Notes under the pieces: generated by a model
What the model was told of the DNA's origin: nothing
Databases searched by the model: none
The model's input: the letters and a program-made list of their open reading frames with translations, nothing else
Origin: an uncultured Candidatus Saccharibacteria bacterium
GTDB lineage: Bacteria > Patescibacteriota > Dojkabacteria > B142 > OLB20
DNA: 35,042 nt
Reading direction: 5' to 3'
NCBI GenBank assembly: GCA_964653475.1
Contig: CAZZFI010000002.1
Span: forward strand, 1-35,042
Shown: positions 4,404-22,373 of the stretch, one piece after another
Layout of the letters: the number at the start of each line of letters is the position of its first letter
How positions within the stretch are numbered: position 1 is the stretch's first letter
Translations under genes and position numbers: made by a program

Positions 4404-4988
4404 ATGAAAATCGAACGACCTCAATCAAAACAACCTATCCCTCCTCATGCAAAGCGGGTTTTTAAAGGTGTCATGTTTGATGTTTACCAGTGGGAACAGA
4501 AAATGTTTGATGGTACTACACAGATTTTTGAGAAGATTAAGCGACCAGATACGGTTATAACTTTTCCAGTGCTAGATAGCGGCAAAATTCTTCTAAATAG
4601 ACAAGAGCAACCGGGAAAGAAAACTTTTATAGGAGGTTTTGGAGGAAGAGTTGAAGAGGGGGAAAACATAATGAAGGCGGCAGAAAGAGAACTTAGAGAA
4701 GAAAGTGGTTATGAAACCGATAATTTTACTTTATGGAAGTCTTTACAACCATTGAGCAAAGTCGAGTGGGCAGTGTTTGTCTTTGTAGCAAGTGGTCTAA
4801 AGAAAGTTAGTGATCTATCCCTTGACTCTGGAGAAAAGATTGAGATCTTGGAAGTGGACTTTGATGAATTTCTGGAAATTGCTCTAAGTCCAGATTTTAG
4901 CGAGGTTGAGATATATCGTGATGTAGTTGACGCCGTAATGGACGAGAAAAAGAAAGAGGATCTGAAGAAATTGTTTGGGGTTAACTAA
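4404..4988 (+). CDS. NUDIX hydrolase
   Basis: Nudix box GGRVEEGENIMKAAERELREESGY. The start abuts the stop of the upstream gene. Confidence 0.9.
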   Translation: MKIERPQSKQPIPPHAKRVFKGVMFDVYQWEQKMFDGTTQIFEKIKRPDTVITFPVLDSGKILLNRQEQPGKKTFIGGFGGRVEEGENIMKAAERELREESGYETDNFTLWKSLQPLSKVEWAVFVFVASGLKKVSDLSLDSGEKIEILEVDFDEFLEIALSPDFSEVEIYRDVVDAVMDEKKKEDLKKLFGVN

Positions 4989-5849: not shown

Positions 5850-6380
5850 TTAACTTTTTCGTTTTTTCTTCAACTTTGAAAGTTTCTCTAACTTCGGTTC
5901 AATCACAAGTCTGCAGTATAGTTGATCTTTATTACGATTAAAGTAGTTTATGTGATAATCTTCCGCCACATAGAAATCTCGATATTCTGAAATCTTCGTA
6001 ACTATAGGAGCTTTAAATTCCTGTTTTTTATATATAGTCTTGATAAAATTCTCCGCTTCTTGTCTTTGATTTTCATCATGATAAAAAATCTCTGATCTAT
6101 ACTGAGTGCCAACATCATTACCCTGCCTGTTTAGTGTGGTTGGATCATGTGTCGCAAAAAAGACTTCAAGTAAATCTTGGTAACTTACTTTTTCGGGGTC
6201 AAACTCTATCCGGATTGCTTCGGCATGATGAGTTTCTCCAGTAGTTACTTGTTCATAGGTAGGGTTTGGAGTATTTCCACCAGAATAGCCAGGTGTGACT
6301 TTTATAACGCCATCTAGTCGTTGAAAAATTGCTTCTGTACACCAAAAACATCCTCCAGCGAAAGTTGCTAAGTCTGTAAT
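5850..6380 (-). CDS. msrA: Peptide-methionine (S)-S-oxide reductase MsrA, no canonical start codon
   Basis: I translated the minus strand by hand. The frame is uninterrupted from 6389 to the TAA stop at 5850-5852 and encodes ...ITDLATFAGGCFWCTEAIFQRLDGVIKVTPGYSGGNTPNPTYEQV..GETHHAEAIRIEFDP...THDPTTLNRQGNDVGTQYRSEIFY. The ORF track misses it because there is no ATG, GTG or TTG near the 5' end. ATT (6378-6380) sits where the ATG is expected. Confidence 0.85.
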   Translation of the reverse strand: MTDLATFAGGCFWCTEAIFQRLDGVIKVTPGYSGGNTPNPTYEQVTTGETHHAEAIRIEFDPEKVSYQDLLEVFFATHDPTTLNRQGNDVGTQYRSEIFYHDENQRQEAENFIKTIYKKQEFKAPIVTKISEYRDFYVAEDYHINYFNRNKDQLYCRLVIEPKLEKLSKLKKKRKS

Positions 6381-6436
6381 ATGAAGAAACTAATAGTTTA
6401 TATATCTATTTTAACAAATTGAGCAAATTCTTGTGT

Positions 6437-6885
6437 TTAAGTTAATGTTGCACTAAGTTCAGTCAAAAATTTATCAATCGTCTCTTGTGTTACATGAGGC
6501 ATAACAACAATGTGAGTGAATCCGTCTAATTTGTGTTTGGATACTTCATATTAAAAGAGAATAGCAGATAAACCATTTCTAGAACCTGAAATAGTGGTGT
6601 CTTTACAACCAATATACTGAACTGGTTGAGAAATCAAATCGACGTATTTCCTCTGTTTGTAATGTAACCCCAAGCCTTAGATGGTTTTATTTGATATAGT
6701 TCACAAAAAAAGTTGATGACTTCAAGTTCTTCTTCTCGTACGTTGATCGGATACTTATAGGACATATAGAGATCACCGATATTATTTATAGAGAGGTTAT
6801 AAAATTCTGTGAGCACAGAGTAATCATAATCAAGGTTTGCCAGCTTGCAGACAAAACTTACTCGAAGGGATTTATATTTTGCCAA
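6437..6885 (-). pseudogene. PLP-dependent (histidine-decarboxylase-like, group II) decarboxylase remnant
   Basis: The 83-aa N-terminal piece ends WGYITNRGNTSI*, close to the W/GY.T.GGTE.N motif. After a frame change the sequence reads ISQPVQYIGCKDTTISGSRNGLSAILF*, then ...HIVVMPHVTQETIDKFLTELSATLT*. The central ~170 aa, including the PLP-binding lysine region, is missing. Confidence 0.65.
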
Positions 6886-13798: not shown

Positions 13799-16700
13799 TC
13801 ACATCTCTAATGCAACATGAGCAGTTCGCTTTATGTGGTTCCAACCTTGTTGAGTCCCTTTGACTGCACGTATGGCCGATATATAAGTTGCGTAGCTCAA
13901 AAAGAATTTATAACCAGTTAGGAAAAAAGGTAGAATTATTAATAATTTCAGCTTATTAAAGAAGCCGTGTTTCTGGAATATTATCACATATAGACATAAG
14001 GCCAATTCCACAATAATAAATATCATCGCAAGTAAACTTAAGAACTCCTGGTCTATATAAGAAACATTTGTGAATATAGGTAACGGGTGGTTATAGAACC
14101 TTGAAACAGAGAGGTATAGAGAGAATAGAAATAGAAATGGATACAAAATGGTCATAGCAATATCAATGTAAAATAGCGGTAATCCTACAAAGCCGAGAGT
14201 ACTATAATGTGGATTAAATACACCTTTTCTATGTTTATATAAAGCTTGCATGTTTCCAAGCTGCCAGCGTGTTCTTTGGCGGAACAAATTTCTAAAATTC
14301 TCCGGTACTTCAGTTTTTGCCCTGGCTTCCGAATTGAAACGAACCTTTTTCCCAATACTGACAATTCTCATGGTTGCGTCTGCATCTTCCGCTAGAGTAT
14401 CGTGAATGAAACCACCTGACTTTATCAGAGCATCTCTTTTCCACATCCCAACTGCGCCTGGTACTACAGTTATAGTATTTATCACATCTTGTGCAGGTTT
14501 AATAAATTGTTGTGAGATGCCGTACTCTATTGTTTGTGAAAGAGTAATTAAATTACGTTGATTTCCAACTAAGATATGTCCAGCAATGGCTCCGACATTA
14601 TCATCTGTAATTAATATATTGTTAGCAAAATTATGAAGTGCCTTCTTTTCAAAAACCGTGTCGGCGTCACAAAAGACAATCCATTTTGTTCGAACCTCCT
14701 TAATTGATCGCTGAAGAGCTTTAGCTTTCCCCATGTTCGTGCTGTTAATTAACTTTATGTTCTTATGCGTGCTACTCATTTCTTTTACTATCTCTGCTGT
14801 CCTGTCGGTAGAACCATCATTAACTACTACAATTTTTAATTTAGGATAATTACATGCTAGGAGTGAATCTATAGTCTTTTTTATGACTAGTTCTTCGTTA
14901 TAACACGCAATTATTACAGCTAAAGGGGGGTATCGGAGTTGTTTTTGATTGATATGAGATAAGAAATATACTTTTAGCACCATTTTAAACTTGTATGTAA
15001 ATGCACCAATTATTAACCAAGTACTTCTCAAAATGGCTAGTAGAAGAGAGAAAGTATTTATCATGAGAATTAAAGTAAACAACTTTTGTCTGCCATAAAG
15101 AGCACGATAAACAGTTGTTGTTGCAGGTATTGCATTAGCTCTAAACTCAGTGTTTTTATCCAACTCGTCTACGCGTACTATTTGGATATCTTTTTTTTGC
15201 AAATATTCAATAATCTGAGGAAGTGCTTCGAGAGTATTATCAATCTTTTCGCTTGTATCATGAAATAATATTTGACTATAGTTCCCTTGCGAATTCTCGA
15301 TAGCCTCGACTACTTTCTGTACACTTTCCTCTGGCGAATCAACTAGCCAATCTTTTGAGTCTATGTCGTATTCGCTTGCACGAAGGTTTAAATCTTTCAA
15401 ATAGTTCAGATACTCAATTGATTCGTCTGTATCGATAACGGATAGATTACTATATGGTTTCCTGAAATATTGGGGTTTTATTCCTGTAACAGTTTCTATA
15501 GCGTTATTGGTAGCCTGTATTTCTTGTATTTGGCTTTGTTGGTCAATCTGGCTGAATATAGGGTGTGTGTGTGAATGATTCTCGATTTCGTGTCCTTTGT
15601 CAATTATCGCTTTTGTCACCTCTGGGTATGCAAGTACGTTTTTTCCTAAGACAAAGAAAGTCCCCTTAACACCATAGCTATCTAATATATCAAGAACCTT
15701 TTTGGTGGTTTCTGGATGGGGTCCATCATCAAACGTTAAAGCAATCTTATTGGAAATATGACCGGTTTTCTCAACGACAGCGGGTTTGTCCTGTGAAATA
15801 ATCTGACTTTGGGTAATGAAAAGTTGGTCATCAAGCTGGATATACCTATCACCAGGCTCTGCTTTGTGATCAATCGAATATACTTCGCCTTCTCCGGTTG
15901 TTTCGATATCTAGTGATGAACGATAGTTCTCTGATAACAGGATTCTGTTTCTAGTATCGTTAAATGGGTCTTCTAGTAAATACCAAGTAGTAAACTCTTC
16001 AAATCCTGGATCAGTAATAGAAAACTTATAATTCGTATTTTCGATAAAGAAGCCACCATTTTTGAGATATCGAAGATAGTTGTATGAGGTAATTGCATCA
16101 GTTGTATTGTATTGAAAATTACCGTTATTTGTTTTAACGGGTTCAATGTCCCTGGAGGTTATCTTCACTTTATCAAAAAATTGTGAAGCATTATGATAAT
16201 CGATACTACTTAGGTAACCTTCTACTACACTAATATCTTTTTGAGTAGATATTGTAGGAACCTCCAAGTACACATTGCTGGGTTGTATATTTGAATATTT
16301 TAAAAGAATATTGAGTTGTTCTAGATAAGTATTCTGTTTATCATTTTTAAAATATATATTATCGACTTTTTTTATTATCGAAGAGTTATAGTCATTGAGA
16401 TATATAGGTGAAATAAGAATTCCAACATTTATATCAGACTCTTCCAGTAATAATTTCGCATCTTCAAACCACCTCTCAAAATTTAATAATTCATCAGAAG
16501 AGGATATCTTGGTATTGTCAAAATCAATATAGATGTCGTCAAAATCGTTTTCTAATAAATCGTTTCTAATCCTTAGAACTTCAGCAATAGTAACGCTTTC
16601 TACATAAGAGACTACTGTTTTGTCAGTTGAACTATTTGTTGTTCTTATTATATTCCTCTCTGTAGGTGGTGCAGAAAAATTAATTCCGCTCAAAATAGCG

Positions 16701-17092
16701 ATTTTCTTACGTTCACCTGGTCTATCTTTTTCTAAGAAGGAAATATCGTTAAGTAGGTTTTGATACTCAATTGGAGTGGAGACTTTCTCTTCACTGACTA
16801 GATATCTAGGAATAAAGATGCTGTATGATGATTCTATTCTGTCGTTTATTACTGAGAATGCACGTGGATGATTCTCGGTATATACCAGTGAAACATTACT
16901 GTTTGTAGTTATTATTTCACTGTGAGGGCTTTGAATAGTATTTATTTGGGTTGCTTTATGAGAATAAACAAAAATAAAAATAAACAAGGCAAGAAATATG
17001 CTAATAAAGACAGGAGAAAGAATATTAAAAAATATTCTACGTTTACCTGACTTATCAAAAAATATTGGTTGTATATTAACTGACTTCTTCAA
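13799..17092 (-). CDS. Fused exopolysaccharide synthase: N-terminal TM + GH18-like domain + CE4 (NodB) polysaccharide deacetylase + processive family-2 glycosyltransferase (PgaC/IcaA/NodC-like) + C-terminal TM bundle
   Basis: 1097 aa with a TTG start. CE4 motifs: TFDDGP, HSHTHP, FRKPYS, DSKDW, ILFHD. GT2 motifs: IIACYNEE, NDGSTD, CDADT, TLAEDAD, QRTRWQLG. The N-terminal region has a DDIYIDFDN string resembling a degenerate GH18 DxxDxDxE motif. Confidence 0.85.
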   Translation of the reverse strand: MKKSVNIQPIFFDKSGKRRIFFNILSPVFISIFLALFIFIFVYSHKATQINTIQSPHSEIITTNSNVSLVYTENHPRAFSVINDRIESSYSIFIPRYLVSEEKVSTPIEYQNLLNDISFLEKDRPGERKKIAILSGINFSAPPTERNIIRTTNSSTDKTVVSYVESVTIAEVLRIRNDLLENDFDDIYIDFDNTKISSSDELLNFERWFEDAKLLLEESDINVGILISPIYLNDYNSSIIKKVDNIYFKNDKQNTYLEQLNILLKYSNIQPSNVYLEVPTISTQKDISVVEGYLSSIDYHNASQFFDKVKITSRDIEPVKTNNGNFQYNTTDAITSYNYLRYLKNGGFFIENTNYKFSITDPGFEEFTTWYLLEDPFNDTRNRILLSENYRSSLDIETTGEGEVYSIDHKAEPGDRYIQLDDQLFITQSQIISQDKPAVVEKTGHISNKIALTFDDGPHPETTKKVLDILDSYGVKGTFFVLGKNVLAYPEVTKAIIDKGHEIENHSHTHPIFSQIDQQSQIQEIQATNNAIETVTGIKPQYFRKPYSNLSVIDTDESIEYLNYLKDLNLRASEYDIDSKDWLVDSPEESVQKVVEAIENSQGNYSQILFHDTSEKIDNTLEALPQIIEYLQKKDIQIVRVDELDKNTEFRANAIPATTTVYRALYGRQKLFTLILMINTFSLLLAILRSTWLIIGAFTYKFKMVLKVYFLSHINQKQLRYPPLAVIIACYNEELVIKKTIDSLLACNYPKLKIVVVNDGSTDRTAEIVKEMSSTHKNIKLINSTNMGKAKALQRSIKEVRTKWIVFCDADTVFEKKALHNFANNILITDDNVGAIAGHILVGNQRNLITLSQTIEYGISQQFIKPAQDVINTITVVPGAVGMWKRDALIKSGGFIHDTLAEDADATMRIVSIGKKVRFNSEARAKTEVPENFRNLFRQRTRWQLGNMQALYKHRKGVFNPHYSTLGFVGLPLFYIDIAMTILYPFLFLFSLYLSVSRFYNHPLPIFTNVSYIDQEFLSLLAMIFIIVELALCLYVIIFQKHGFFNKLKLLIILPFFLTGYKFFLSYATYISAIRAVKGTQQGWNHIKRTAHVALEM

Positions 17093-17675: not shown

Positions 17676-18545
17676 CTATTTCTTCTGCAAAATGTGTTTA
17701 TAATAAACAGCAACTCCTTGCTCAATAAGTTCAGGCATCAAATATCCTGATATAGCGTTTCTTACAAACATATCAGGCAATATCTTGGTCAATAATTTGC
17801 CAAATACACCAAGTTTTATAAATGCCTTTGCTAATTTTTCAAAACGCTTCATTGTAGGTAGTACCTTACTGGAAAGATTCGTTTCTTCAATAATCATAAA
17901 ACCATTTTTTTTAATTATCGTTTGGAAGTCGGGTAGGTATTGAAAATCCTTAACAGCCATGCCAGTAGCTGTAAGTTTTCTTGCTTCTTCTTCTGCTTCA
18001 TCGAGGTTGGCAGGGTTCTTCCCATAATATCCGTCAAAAATAATAAAATACCCATCGGGTTTTAATACTCTTTTGACTTCTGATATTACTTTACTAACGT
18101 CATTGGCGTGGCATAGTGCTTCAATGATAAATACCAAATTAAAACTCGAATCATAGAACTTTTTTAAGTCGTGGTAATCGCCAAAATCAAACTTTGTATT
18201 ATTTAGTTTATAGAATTCCTTTTTAGGCCTAGTTGAATAATCGAGGGCAGTAAAATCGACGTTGATATATTGTTCAGCAAGATAGGTAGTATTTGCACCC
18301 TGTCCGCTGGCAAGTTCAAGAACCGAAAATCCATTTCTATTTCGAATATATTCACCAATTTGTATCAAAGGTTTCAATAAATCATCACTTCTATAGTGAC
18401 CATTATCGCTTAACCCCATATGCAAGAATCCTTGTCTATTATGGAATAGTCTGTATGCAATTTTATTGGTCTGATAATAATCTCGAACGACTTTTCCGCT
18501 GTTTGTTTCGGTTAAATATCTATCAGTATCAAGAACAGTTTTCAA
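17676..18545 (-). CDS. Class I SAM-dependent methyltransferase
   Basis: Motif I VLELASGQGANTTYL, an acidic post-I residue (ALDYS), and motif II-III region LKPDGYFIIFD. 289 aa with a TTG start. Confidence 0.8.
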   Translation of the reverse strand: MKTVLDTDRYLTETNSGKVVRDYYQTNKIAYRLFHNRQGFLHMGLSDNGHYRSDDLLKPLIQIGEYIRNRNGFSVLELASGQGANTTYLAEQYINVDFTALDYSTRPKKEFYKLNNTKFDFGDYHDLKKFYDSSFNLVFIIEALCHANDVSKVISEVKRVLKPDGYFIIFDGYYGKNPANLDEAEEEARKLTATGMAVKDFQYLPDFQTIIKKNGFMIIEETNLSSKVLPTMKRFEKLAKAFIKLGVFGKLLTKILPDMFVRNAISGYLMPELIEQGVAVYYKHILQKK

Positions 18546-19025
18546 AGTATTAAGTTTTTCTGTTAGTTTTGTGTTAATTGCAATAATTCTAGTGAATCAA
18601 GTATATGTGACTGAACCACAAATATCAATGAAAGTATGATTACGATCAAGAGTTACAATGAAAAGTAATACGAAACCAAAAGTAAAGTTATAGCGATTGC
18701 TTTGAGAATGCAGATCATTTTAGCATTCCGGACATAACTGTGAACGACAATAAATCAAACAGAATCGGGTTCGTGGATCTTTGGAGGGTATGAGCAATTG
18801 AACTTCTTATGGGGGCAATTGTTGGATGCTTTATTGAACTTTATCAATATCCACTAGCCTTTATTAATGGAATCTGCCGAAGGAATTTCAAGTAGAATGT
18901 GGAGAGCTGCTATGAAAAAGCTACTAGAGATGCTAATGGTACTACCAGGAAATTTATGTCCATTTTGTAAAGATATTAAATAATCATCTGATTTTAAGTT
19001 TGTGGTGGGAAATTCTCGAAATTAC

Positions 19026-19053
19026 TTGATTCCTTTTATAAAAGGATTATAGT
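19026..19053 (+). promoter_or_regulatory. Putative sigma70-type promoter of the heliorhodopsin gene
   Basis: -35 TTGATT (19026-19031), a 16-nt spacer and -10 TATAGT (19048-19053), about 28 nt upstream of the ATG. No obvious Shine-Dalgarno sequence. Confidence 0.3.
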
Positions 19054-19081
19054 TATATTATTAATACTTATTATTCACCCC

Positions 19082-19849
19082 ATGCAAGATAAGTTTAGAA
19101 AATTACGCAAGTTTAATTTATTTATGTCGCTGCTACATTTCCTTCAAGCTGTTGCGGTATTTATTTTGAGTGACGCAGAAAAGGGAGTTGTGCCAATTAC
19201 AGTAAATTTCTTAAAGTTTGACATAGATGTACAAAAACTTCTTCCTGCAACTGAACAAATAACAGAAGTGAATTTAGCTTGGTTTGTGATCATGTTCTTC
19301 ATGATGAGCTCTCTAGCGCATTTATTCATAGCGACTAGCTATAGAAAAACTTATGAAGATAACCTTCAAAAAGGAATTAATAAAGTGAGATGGTTCGAAT
19401 ACGCTTTGAGTGCGAGTGTAATGATGATTGCAATAAGTTTGCTCTCAGGTATCTATGATTTATCTAGTTTAATTATGATATTCACACTAGATGCATTGAT
19501 GAACTTACTAGGACTTGCAATGGAAGTTCATAACCCGGACAAAAATAAAGTGAATTGGCTAACCTACATCCTTGGCTGTATCGCAGGAATAGTTCCATGG
19601 TTAGTTTTTGGTATCTATGTTTTTGCAGCTAGAGAATATGGTGGTGGCGATATTCCGGATTTTGTTTATTGGATTTATGTTAGTATTTTCATCTTCTTCA
19701 ATAGTTTTGCAGTAAATATGTATTTACAATACAAACGGGTGGGGAAATGGTCAGATTATCTTTATGGAGAAAAAGTTTATATGATTTTGAGCTTAGTAGC
19801 AAAATCCTTGCTTGCTTGGCAAGTATTTGGAGGTACACTAAGACCCTGA
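19082..19849 (+). CDS. Heliorhodopsin (retinal-binding 7-TM photoreceptor, inverted topology)
   Basis: 255 aa with strong similarity to my recollection of HeR 48C12: LLHFLQ (His19), LAHLFI (His80), RWFEYALSASVMM (Glu106, counterion position), GCIAGIVPW, FFNSFAV..YLQYK..GKWSDYLYGEKVYMILSLVAKSLLAWQVFGGTLRP. The Schiff-base lysine is K241 (aaa, 19802-19804). The basic N-terminus MQDKFRKLRK fits a cytoplasmic N-terminus. Confidence 0.9.
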   Translation: MQDKFRKLRKFNLFMSLLHFLQAVAVFILSDAEKGVVPITVNFLKFDIDVQKLLPATEQITEVNLAWFVIMFFMMSSLAHLFIATSYRKTYEDNLQKGINKVRWFEYALSASVMMIAISLLSGIYDLSSLIMIFTLDALMNLLGLAMEVHNPDKNKVNWLTYILGCIAGIVPWLVFGIYVFAAREYGGGDIPDFVYWIYVSIFIFFNSFAVNMYLQYKRVGKWSDYLYGEKVYMILSLVAKSLLAWQVFGGTLRP

Positions 19850-19926: not shown

Positions 19927-20448
19927 ATGAAAAATAAGAGAATAATTATTGTTATGTTATTTATCCTTTTACTTGTCATATTGGGTTTTGTTTTTTTTCT
20001 ATTTAATCAGAATGTGTCAACCGGAGATTCAGATAATAAGATGGACGAAAATGTTCCTTCTGCTACAGAGCGTCCAGATTTATTTGGTGAAGATTTGGAT
20101 GAAAATAAACACGATCTGAAACTCACCATAATTAGTCCAGAAGAAGAAACTTTCATCCCGAGACAAGCTAGATATTATAATGCTTTAGCAGAAGGTAATT
20201 ACAAGTGGTCAAATCAAGTAAAGTGTAAATGGGAGTTCTATTTGAATCAAAATAACGAAGAGGCACTTTACGAAACCATGGATAATTCTGGTATTTTATC
20301 AGGAGAGACTAAAGAGGTTTGTGGATTCACACCCACTTTCATTGAAGATGTGGGTGTCTTAAGAGTCAAACTGTCTATGACGGTTTATAATGCGGTGGAT
20401 GATAATTTAGAAACAGTCACGGCAGAGAGAATATACACTGTAAAGTAA
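19927..20448 (+). CDS. Membrane-anchored/secreted hypothetical protein
   Basis: 173 aa with an N-terminal hydrophobic anchor (IIIVMLFILLLVILGFVFFLF), then an acidic linker and a globular region containing two Cys. No recognisable family. Confidence 0.6.
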   Translation: MKNKRIIIVMLFILLLVILGFVFFLFNQNVSTGDSDNKMDENVPSATERPDLFGEDLDENKHDLKLTIISPEEETFIPRQARYYNALAEGNYKWSNQVKCKWEFYLNQNNEEALYETMDNSGILSGETKEVCGFTPTFIEDVGVLRVKLSMTVYNAVDDNLETVTAERIYTVK

Positions 20449-20510: not shown

Positions 20511-20706
20511 ATTTCCCAGCGTTTGGATTTTTTAGTATCGGGATTGCCTGGATCTGGCAAAACACTTTAGCAAAGGATATAACAACTAAGCGAAATGCAG
20601 TACGTCTATGTGCGGATTAATGGATTTGCGAATTTGAGGATAAATCGGATATAAAAGTTTGGAACAATACAAATCGAGGACAATTATATTGGCGGGAGCT
20701 TTTTAG
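20511..20706 (+). pseudogene. Degraded paralog of the P-loop kinase at 90-593
   Basis: Reads ..LVSGLPGSGKTL* and, after a 1-nt frame change, LAKDITTKRNAVRLCAD*WICEFEDKSDI. This parallels GLPGSGKTTLAKRLEVERNGVRLCADEWIYDILEDKNDI in the intact gene. It has one frameshift and one in-frame TAA, and the C-terminal two-thirds is missing. Confidence 0.7.
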
Positions 20707-20937: not shown

Positions 20938-21082
20938 TAAGGGTTGCTAGATGAAAGTGATTATTTGATGCAGATTTTTAATGGGGTGACTGGCCGGATA
21001 ATGTTTGAACATTTTTTCACAGAATTTCCAAATTATTTCATCTGAATGTAAAATTGTATCTATAACTTTATATTTGAGATCC

Positions 21083-21517
21083 ATGTCAGAGGCAGAACAT
21101 GTGCAAGTAAAAGTATCCGTTTTAGGTTTTCTGTCTGACGGAAACAAGATTTTATTCCAAAGAAGGTATAACACTGGTTGGGAAGATGGAAAGTACACGA
21201 TCCCCTCGGGACGAATACATGAAGGTGAGTTACCCATAGCTGCTATGATTCGTGAGCTTGAAGAAGAAATTGGGGTAACTGCTAAACCTAAAGATGTTGA
21301 ATTTGTATACTTCGACTATGTTCAAGATAAATATGTGAATATTTTCTTCAGAATTAATGCCTGGGAAGGCACACCTAAAATTATGGAGCATGATAAGTGT
21401 GATGAATTGAAGTGGATCGATTTAAATGATCTACCAGATAACCTAGTTGGTCGTGGGAAACAAATATTAGAAGACATACAGAAGGGCGTGAAATACGCTG
21501 AGTATGACGACTTCTAA
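21083..21517 (+). CDS. NUDIX hydrolase
   Basis: Nudix box GRIHEGELPIAAMIRELEEEIGV. ATG at 21083 (MSEAEHVQVKV...) is preferred over the track start at 21005, which overlaps the divergent ORF. Confidence 0.85.
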   Translation: MSEAEHVQVKVSVLGFLSDGNKILFQRRYNTGWEDGKYTIPSGRIHEGELPIAAMIRELEEEIGVTAKPKDVEFVYFDYVQDKYVNIFFRINAWEGTPKIMEHDKCDELKWIDLNDLPDNLVGRGKQILEDIQKGVKYAEYDDF

Positions 21518-21521
21518 CCAC

Positions 21522-21900
21522 TCATAAGACATCGAGGATTACACAGGATGAATATGACAAAAAACGAAAAGAGTGGACCTCCAAGAAACATGAAATAGAG
21601 TCTCGATTAAGTAGGATAAATAAAGCAGATGAAGAGTACTATATTACACCCTCCTACTTGCTTGAGCTAGCTTCAAGAAGTTATGAATTATTTATAGGTT
21701 CTGAACCTGAACAAAAAAGGCAGCTTATCACATTGACACTTCAGAACCTGAGCAAAAAAGGCAACTTATCACATTGACACTTCAGAACCTTGATATAAAA
21801 GATGGATTACTAAGCTATGAGTGGGTTAAAACCTTTGATAGTGTGTTCGTTCCGCTAAGGGTCACAACTGGGGTCAATGGTTGGATGCCGTTTGGAACTC
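21522..21900 (+). pseudogene. C-terminal remnant of a large serine recombinase (recombinase-family protein)
   Basis: Reads ...TQDEYDKKRKEWTSKKHEIESRLSRINKADEEYYITPSYLLELASRSYELFIGSEPEQKRQLITLTLQNL.. and then, after the duplication-induced frameshift, ..LTLQNLDIKDGLLSYEWVKTFDSVF. This pattern is typical of the C-terminal tail of large serine recombinases. No catalytic N-terminal domain is present. Confidence 0.6.
21703..21790 (+). repeat. 41-bp tandem duplication (2 full copies with 2 mismatches, plus a 6-nt partial third copy)
   Basis: Copy 1 (21703-21743) is gaacctgaAcaaaaaaggcaGcttatcacattgacacttca. Copy 2 (21744-21784) is gaacctgaGcaaaaaaggcaActtatcacattgacacttca. gaacct follows. The 41-nt period is not a multiple of 3. 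Confidence 0.9.
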
Positions 21901-21971
21901 CGTATTTATACGGTATCGTAAGGTTAGTAATTAGCATGTATAATTATATCGAGAAATTTTCAGGTGTAGAA

Positions 21972-22373
21972 ATGGATAATAAACCAAAATCAGTAGCGAT
22001 ATTAATAATTAATAAAAAAGGAGAAGTGTTGCAAATGCTGAGGGATGATAAGCCTACAATCCAGTATCCAAATACCTGGGTAAGCATAGGCGGACAAGTG
22101 GAAGCAGGAGAGTCCTTTGAAGAAGCAATAGTCCGTGAAGTATATGAAGAGCTCGAAATTCAGCTTGATTCGTTTGATTTATTCAAAATCTACGAGTGGC
22201 CTGAAAAAACAGAAGCGATTTTTATCGCACATTCAGATCTTGATCCTAGTTCGATCAATTTACATGAAGGTCAAAAGATTGAGTTTTTTTCAGAGGAAGA
22301 GTTACGCAAGTTGAAATTTGGATTTCATGACGAGGAAATTTTGAATGATTACTTTAGTCAACAAGATAAGTAG
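21972..22373 (+). CDS. NUDIX hydrolase
   Basis: Nudix box GGQVEAGESFEEAIVREVYEELEI. ATG at 21972 (MDNKPKSVAILI...) is the likely start. The track ORF from TTG 21774 fuses recombinase-remnant sequence onto it. Confidence 0.8.
   Translation: MDNKPKSVAILIINKKGEVLQMLRDDKPTIQYPNTWVSIGGQVEAGESFEEAIVREVYEELEIQLDSFDLFKIYEWPEKTEAIFIAHSDLDPSSINLHEGQKIEFFSEEELRKLKFGFHDEEILNDYFSQQDK

Follow-up and report, generated by a model that had tools for sequence, protein, structure and literature searches.

The closest characterised relatives of the heliorhodopsin (HeR) described here are TaHeR from the Thermoplasmatales archaeon SG8-52-1 (PDB 6is6, 7u55 and 7clj) and 48C12, the freshwater actinobacterial founding member of the family (PDB 6su3, 6uh3 and 9ljj). 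HeRs bind directly to glutamine synthetase, photolyase and an ABC transporter and so regulate them (PMC11109279), and they have been proposed as switches that sense photo-oxidative stress in monoderms and CPR bacteria (PMC8612252, PMC9166423). They serve organisms that have no retinal pathway, the retinal loading quickly through an opening in the apoprotein, and CPR rhodopsins have been proposed to depend on retinal from a host or the environment (PMC9296517). A survey of 1326 CPR genomes found 115 rhodopsins in 86 genomes; 17 of these rhodopsins were predicted proton pumps and 98 were inferred HeRs, 7 of the latter being from Dojkabacteria (PMC9166423). Among 448 HeR genes, 38.6% were predicted to share a transcript with a neighbour (PMC11109279), so that a lone HeR gene is the majority state (∼61%).

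We analysed a stretch of DNA of 35,042 nucleotides (hereafter the window) that contains a HeR gene. Its immediate surroundings are as follows.

17676 to 18545, minus strand: class-I SAM-dependent methyltransferase gene, 289 aa (Pfam families Methyltransf_11, _31, _25, _12 and _23)
18546 to 19081: divergent intergenic spacer of 536 bp, no feature detected
19026 to 19053, plus strand: candidate sigma-70-like promoter, TTGATT-16-TATAGT, a consensus match only, its end 28 nt upstream of the HeR ATG
19082 to 19849, plus strand: HeR ORF, ATG to TGA, 255 aa
19892 to 19900: extended -10 element, TGTTATAAT, before the gene of the 173-aa protein
19927 to 20448, plus strand: gene of a 173-aa protein with an N-terminal membrane helix and no Pfam hit

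In a Pfam scan, the HeR ORF matched the Heliorhodopsin family (PF18761) with 312.9 bits (E 1.7e-93; cut-off 26.7 bits), residues 8–253 spanning profile positions 1–242 of 242; judged by this profile, the score is far above chance level. When all PDB sequences were searched with the protein, heliorhodopsins were the only matches, with TaHeR (6is6, E 8e-74) as the best solved structure and 48C12 (E ∼1e-52) next, and K241, E106 and H19 aligned with functional residues of TaHeR and 48C12. The earlier note, made from the sequence of the window, had singled out H19, H80, E106 (in RWFEYALSAS) and K241 (in LSLVAKSLLAWQ), all of which have the residue numbers given there; the motifs GCIAGIVPW, FFNSFA and GTLRP that it listed were found at residues 165, 205 and 251. 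K241 and E106 both fall on homologous functional positions in known HeRs. The full-length family match, the PDB search, the residues and the predicted fold agree with its reading of the gene as intact, and the ORF encodes a genuine, intact heliorhodopsin, a member of the retinal-binding light sensor family.

Mapping of the 45 residues of 48C12 singled out in PMC7049168, with the numbering taken from the 9ljj chain, showed that 39 of them are identical in the window HeR, the overall identity to 48C12 being 43%. The chromophore site comprises K241 as the Schiff-base lysine, E106 as the counterion and S237, S110 and S76 as Schiff-base stabilisers, and the residues of the water-filled Schiff-base cavity (H19, H80, N100, Y107, N12, E230, R103 and Y91) are all identical to those of 48C12. 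E106 corresponds to E107 of 48C12, and S237 stands where bR has D212 (roles from PMC7049168); helix C thus supplies Glu as the sole counterion, and Ser replaces the second carboxylate of type-1 rhodopsins. The SxxxK motif of helix G, S237-L-V-A-K241, matches S237 and K241 of 48C12 and the lysine of TaHeR, and SLVAK is also the most common helix-7 motif in the CPR HeR survey (PMC9166423). W173, M140, F206, F72 and M114 line the retinal pocket. N207, I170 and F203 are present at the positions that form the lipid-facing opening between helices E and F in the 48C12 paper (PMC7049168). Comparison of 195 HeRs showed that H80, K241 and S237 are invariant (195/195); position 19 is His in 194 of them, and E106 is also kept in 194, the remaining one having an alignment gap.

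TaHeR has the same length as the window HeR and shares its layout of helices and AB hairpin, the Schiff-base lysine, the Glu counterion and the two His, with 49% identity in the structural alignment. Both proteins have Met at the Q213 position of 48C12 and Asn at the I142 position, a pattern of bacterial subfamily 3 (PMC7049168). They differ in host (an archaeon versus a CPR bacterium), in the EF loop, which is five residues longer in the window HeR, and at D137, where TaHeR has Thr; I170 and F203 of the window HeR occupy the positions that make the opening of 48C12 tighter than that of TaHeR (PMC7049168). Among the residues identical to those of 48C12 are all of the Schiff-base cavity and of the hydrophobic barrier, all but one of the five in the E149 polar region, the surface polar clusters, P40 in the AB loop and the dimer residues Y179 and D127. 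The changes from 48C12 are N138 to D137, S112 to A111, I142 to N141 and Q213 to M213 in the pocket and R91 to T90 and R231 to K231 in the loops.

An AlphaFold2 model built on 32 clade members (mean pLDDT 73.5, moderate confidence) predicts seven helices and an AB-loop beta-hairpin with strands at residues 36–47 and 52–64. It matches 6is6 with a TM score of 0.79–0.80, and its top ten PDB matches are all heliorhodopsins (TM 0.75–0.80). Only heliorhodopsins match the model at E ≤ 1e-11; type-1 rhodopsins appear at E ≥ 5e-3. The structure prediction that the note had called for, with a check of the retinal pocket, thus returned a heliorhodopsin fold with a complete predicted chromophore site. The inverted topology proposed from the basic N-terminus also fits: the N-terminus and the BC, DE and FG loops contain 16 Lys and Arg residues, whereas the AB, CD and EF loops together with the C-terminus have 5, and Asp and Glu show the reverse bias, with 6 in the predicted cytoplasmic segments and 10 in the outer ones, so that these counts predict an N-terminus inside the cell.

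The one pocket residue that sets the clade apart is D137 (codon 19490–19492), which occupies the position of N138 in 48C12 and is accompanied in the Dojkabacteria HeR clade by A111 in place of S112. Asp was found at this position in 119 of 119 close homologues and in 14 of the 15 Dojkabacteria-type loci; in other lineages the residue is N, T, V or S, although 7 of 32 other CPR HeRs have Asp as well. N138 of 48C12 has been equated with D115 of bR and D156 of ChR2 (PMC7049168). In the literature on this position we found the structural description in PMC7049168 only and no study of an Asp variant, so that D137 is one small new point, a clade-specific feature for which we found no published discussion.

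A carboxylate in this region could be taken to indicate that the window HeR is a light-gated proton transporter, like V2HeR3 of a giant virus, and not a regulator. Proton transport by a viral HeR has been reported (cited in PMC11109279 and PMC12873467), the clade has the extra carboxylate D137 in the retinal pocket region, and the window HeR stands alone, as do the viral HeRs. However, its closest characterised relatives, TaHeR (49%) and 48C12 (40–41% in the structural alignment), are of the non-pumping type, and all listed positions of the Schiff-base cavity and the E148 polar region agree with 48C12 except Q213M, a variant that the structure paper calls frequent. The proton-transporting viral HeR also belongs to a distant subgroup, and we consider transport by the window HeR highly improbable. 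The pocket carboxylate in a user of external retinal could instead alter retinal uptake, colour or photocycle lifetime. There is perhaps a slim chance that D137 marks the Dojkabacteria HeRs as a spectrally or kinetically distinct subtype, in which case the lack of a fixed neighbour would mean a housekeeping partner encoded elsewhere.

Analysis of the relatives of three genes in the window pointed to a single host group. Leaving aside the window's own copy, the best 120 HeR matches include more than 100 homologues (clusters) that are full length and 71–82% identical, and every one of these 120 that is attributed to an organism is a 'heliorhodopsin HeR [Candidatus Dojkabacteria bacterium]'; the top-ranking genome loci belong to Dojkabacteria MAGs or to MAGs loosely labelled Saccharibacteria. 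The AtpD matches that name an organism (69–71% identity) are likewise all from Dojkabacteria (the others read 'bacterium' only), and the only named members of the 173-aa neighbour family are also from Dojkabacteria. By sequence comparison, HeR, AtpD and the 173-aa family all place the window in Candidatus Dojkabacteria (CPR/Patescibacteria), a group with tiny cells. The earlier note had made its interest in the gene depend on a reduced, host-dependent genome, and since three independent genes point to this CPR group, such a genome can be assumed. Annotated Dojkabacteria HeRs thus belong to the same clade and organism class as the window HeR. The exact HeR sequence is not on record in public assemblies, its nearest relative being 82% identical; the sequence itself is new, whereas its kind and host group, like the lack of a retinal pathway and of a partner, have already been described.

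Between the same organisms, HeR appears about as conserved as AtpD (about 70–73% identity to the named Dojkabacteria proteins), which suggests purifying selection, and 105 columns are invariant across 32 clade members. Compared with these named proteins, HeR and AtpD show parallel levels of identity, which fits vertical inheritance under selection. Composition gave no evidence of recent transfer: the GC content (z -1.35) and GC3 (z -0.53) of the HeR gene are typical of the window, as are those of the flanking genes. The gene might also be regarded as a recently acquired or decaying passenger that has no current function, for instance an apo-opsin that never meets retinal, since there is gene wreckage in the window (an AAA_33 remnant at 20532–20653, decarboxylase-like fragments at ∼6360–6885 and the featureless 536-bp spacer) and the genomic context of HeR differs in every relative. 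Against this, the ORF is intact and of full length with all functional residues kept, and the invariant columns, the ordinary GC and GC3 and the parallel with AtpD also speak for a gene in use; we find it very hard to credit that HeR is such a passenger. As for the changing context, loss of synteny is to be expected at an AtpD divergence of this degree (identity about 70–73%) and is not in itself a sign of mobility.

In all, 32 ORFs were scanned with Pfam: HeR and 31 of the 37 others listed with a length of 100 aa or more, the six left over lying across annotated genes in other frames. The families found were an AAA_33 kinase, DUF1761, DUF4256, two SDRs, a SnoaL-like protein, hydrolases, four NUDIX proteins, an EamA transporter, a PMT_2-like protein, the methyltransferase, a polysaccharide deacetylase-GT2 fusion of 1097 aa, DUF1801, a DEAD-box helicase, BipA and the F1Fo ATP synthase operon, whose atpD lies 12.4 kb from HeR. 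The only RNA gene detected in the window was one tRNA-His. There were no carotenoid or retinal-synthesis genes (blh, crt or beta-carotene dioxygenase) in the 32 scanned ORFs of the 35-kb window, and no histidine kinase, response regulator, MCP-type transducer, glutamine synthetase or photolyase. DUF2177 is absent from the window, the SDR and hydrolase genes are more than 10 kb from HeR, and no gene of a known HeR partner type adjoins HeR on the same strand in a putative operon. The earlier statement that the window offers neither retinal synthesis nor a signalling partner therefore holds for recognisable families in these 32 ORFs over 35 kb, since six of the scanned ORFs had no Pfam hit at all; these six proteins could include an unrecognised HeR partner. 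Further features of the window are listed below.

90 to 593: intact AAA_33 kinase gene
4404 to 4988, 21005 to 21517 and 21774 to 22373, plus strand: three NUDIX hydrolase genes within 18 kb
5850 to 6389, minus strand: intact-looking MsrA reading frame of ∼175 aa with a GCFWC motif
∼6360 to 6885, minus strand: decarboxylase-like fragments in three frames ('WGYITNRGNTSI', 'TISGSRNG' and 'HIVVMPHVT')
13799 to 17092, minus strand: polysaccharide deacetylase-glycosyltransferase fusion, 1097 aa, TTG start, a single ORF
20532 to 20653, plus strand: frameshifted remnant of an AAA_33 P-loop kinase, with GLPGSGKTL in one frame and AKDITTKRNAVRLCADEWI in another

The AAA_33 remnant shares 51% identity over 39 aa with the intact gene at 90–593 and sits in the 556-bp gap immediately 3' of the gene of the 173-aa protein. 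The MsrA frame begins TTT CTT CAT ATT ACA GAC and has no ATG, GTG or TTG start and therefore escaped the ORF lister; an ATT at ∼6378–6380 is the one plausible start, and the frame is either a gene that initiates at ATT or a pseudogene with a mutated start codon. The fragments at ∼6360–6885, judged by eye, look like a truncated and decayed pseudogene of a PLP-dependent (histidine-type) decarboxylase. The 1097-aa fusion combines a polysaccharide deacetylase domain (residues 448–550), a family-2 glycosyltransferase or chitin-synthase-like domain (722–993) and several membrane segments. Two of the three NUDIX genes lie just downstream of the HeR region, and such a number is unusually high for a reduced genome.

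The -35/-10 pair upstream of HeR and the extended -10 before the next gene, from which monocistronic expression with a promoter of its own had been proposed, both exist as sequences. The region contains 11 promoter-like matches as against 13.8 ± 4.1 in shuffled sequences, that is, no enrichment, and the 77-bp gap between HeR and the gene of the 173-aa protein contains no terminator-like site. With promoter matches at chance level and no such site between the genes, the proposal is unproven, and monocistronic expression is possible. The spacer upstream of HeR has the 536 bp ascribed to it; it has stops in all six frames, and the 'broken small ORFs' described there have no detectable homology and belong to no detectable RNA family. 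tblastx of the spacer against the fetched loci gave no match and only one marginal self-match in the window (29 aa, E 0.003), blastn gave chance-level matches only and Rfam gave none at E ≤ 1. A pseudogene or an RNA was rejected on these results, and the spacer is just a long stretch between two divergent genes or a gene decayed past recognition.

Both flanking genes turned out to be of the kinds expected, the Pfam families bearing out the divergent SAM methyltransferase and the predicted N-terminal helix the membrane anchor of the 173-aa protein. The latter consists of this helix, a disordered acidic linker and a beta-sandwich of ∼110 aa with two invariant Cys (C100 and C132). We found 22 homologues; the model (pLDDT 79) has generic fold matches only (Ig-like, macroglobulin and arrestin-type).

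The position of this gene raises the question of a two-gene operon in which the 173-aa protein would be the signalling or retinal-handling partner of HeR. Both genes are read from the same strand, separated by 77 bp that contain no terminator-like site, the only homologue of the 173-aa protein among 80 HeR loci (locus L007) directly adjoins HeR, and its named family members come from Dojkabacteria, like the HeR clade. In L007, however, the gene is convergent with HeR and thus not co-transcribed with it. Homologues of 64–79% identity in four other contexts (L081/82, L083, L084/85 and L086/87) have no HeR within 6 kb, so that the family is found beside HeR in two of six distinct contexts (the window and L007). 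The other 14 Dojkabacteria-type HeR loci and the three closest HeR homologues have unrelated downstream genes, and the extended -10 element precedes the 173-aa gene. Furthermore, the conserved domain of the protein would be extracellular, whereas the characterised HeR partners bind cytoplasmic loops (PMC11109279). An operon of this kind is accordingly quite improbable. As a HeR partner, the 173-aa protein was rejected on the four homologue look-ups with no HeR nearby and on its generic beta-sandwich fold.

The same lack of conservation was seen in the rest of the neighbourhood. When all 31 window proteins were compared by BLAST with the ORFs of the 80 HeR loci, which came from species-representative genomes, only HeR and the one homologue of the 173-aa protein in L007 were recovered; no methyltransferase homologue was found near HeR in these 80 loci or in the ten additional ones (L081–L090). 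Clustering of the neighbours revealed no family that recurs among the Dojkabacteria-type loci. A hidden family of small downstream partners was considered and rejected, the downstream ORFs of the 15 loci L001–L015 being mutually unrelated; these genes include DUF2177-like proteins, a histidine kinase (L014), methyltransferases and others. The three closest HeR homologues that we looked up (77–81% identity) lie in three further contexts, with an M28 peptidase in L088, a DEAD-box helicase and, nearby, a superoxide dismutase in L089 and a DUF2177 gene in L090. Single Dojkabacteria-type HeR loci thus carry known partner types:

L014, 8835 to 10511, minus strand: multi-TM histidine kinase, convergent with HeR
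L090, 8786 to 9184, plus strand: DUF2177 gene, 18 bp downstream of HeR

The flanking genes of the annotated Dojkabacteria HeRs differ from those of the window in every related locus examined, and the comparison of neighbourhoods that had been suggested for the two flanking genes shows that neither is a conserved HeR neighbour. A weak vestige of synteny, involving HeR, the gene of the 173-aa protein and a DEAD-box helicase, can be seen across the window, L083 and L089.

The HeRs of Saccharimonadia, which are also from CPR hosts and are 53–62% identical to the window HeR, are found in a different setting. Their conserved gene block, absent from the window, comprises an ABC ATPase, an FtsX-like permease, a ∼100-aa protein (c5), MsrA and sometimes an opposite-strand sortase-like gene upstream, followed by HeR, an RsmE or RumA-like methyltransferase, a ∼260-aa protein (c1) and SerRS. 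It was delineated in ∼20 loci (L016–L050) from ∼3.5 kb upstream to 2.5 kb downstream of HeR (at about 10001), with the genes otherwise on the same strand and their names read by eye from the sequences. MsrA is directly upstream of HeR in ∼19 other CPR loci, mostly of Saccharimonadia, whereas in the window it is 12.7 kb from HeR and on the other strand. The paper on HeR gene contexts (PMC8612252) makes no mention of MsrA in its main text, and the MsrA-containing block may reflect lineage synteny as much as function. Thus, unlike in Saccharimonadia, the gene neighbourhood in Dojkabacteria is no guide to the HeR partner.

Taken together, the window very probably encodes a functional HeR of the Dojkabacteria clade that uses external retinal and acts as a light-dependent regulator of a partner encoded elsewhere, and not as a pump. 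By analogy with the characterised HeRs, it would bind all-trans retinal that its own cell does not make; the retinal would be supplied by the community or the host and would enter through the lateral E/F opening. Illumination would lead to a long-lived photointermediate in a slow photocycle, in which the basic cytoplasmic loops could contact a partner protein and regulate it in a light-dependent manner without pumping. Because nothing adjacent to HeR is conserved, the partner is probably encoded elsewhere in the genome. A response to light or to photo-oxidative stress would be the most likely physiological theme, as proposed for the HeRs of monoderms and CPR bacteria; the oxidative-stress part of it would be carried over from other lineages, MsrA being distant from HeR here and adjacent to it in Saccharimonadia.

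The retention of a photoreceptor in a reduced genome, which the earlier note had considered worthy of attention, is no longer a novelty: CPR HeRs, their use of external retinal and lone HeR genes have all been published (PMC9166423, PMC9296517, PMC11109279). Since the HeR, the absent retinal pathway and the absent fixed partner have already been described for the group, the window HeR is an ordinary new member of it, and its locus makes the question of HeR function no more testable than many similar published loci. D137 would be a cheap target for mutagenesis and spectroscopy should any Dojkabacteria HeR be expressed. For the family, the window adds one sequence and bears out that a strongly conserved light sensor is retained by CPR bacteria whose genomes are minimal.
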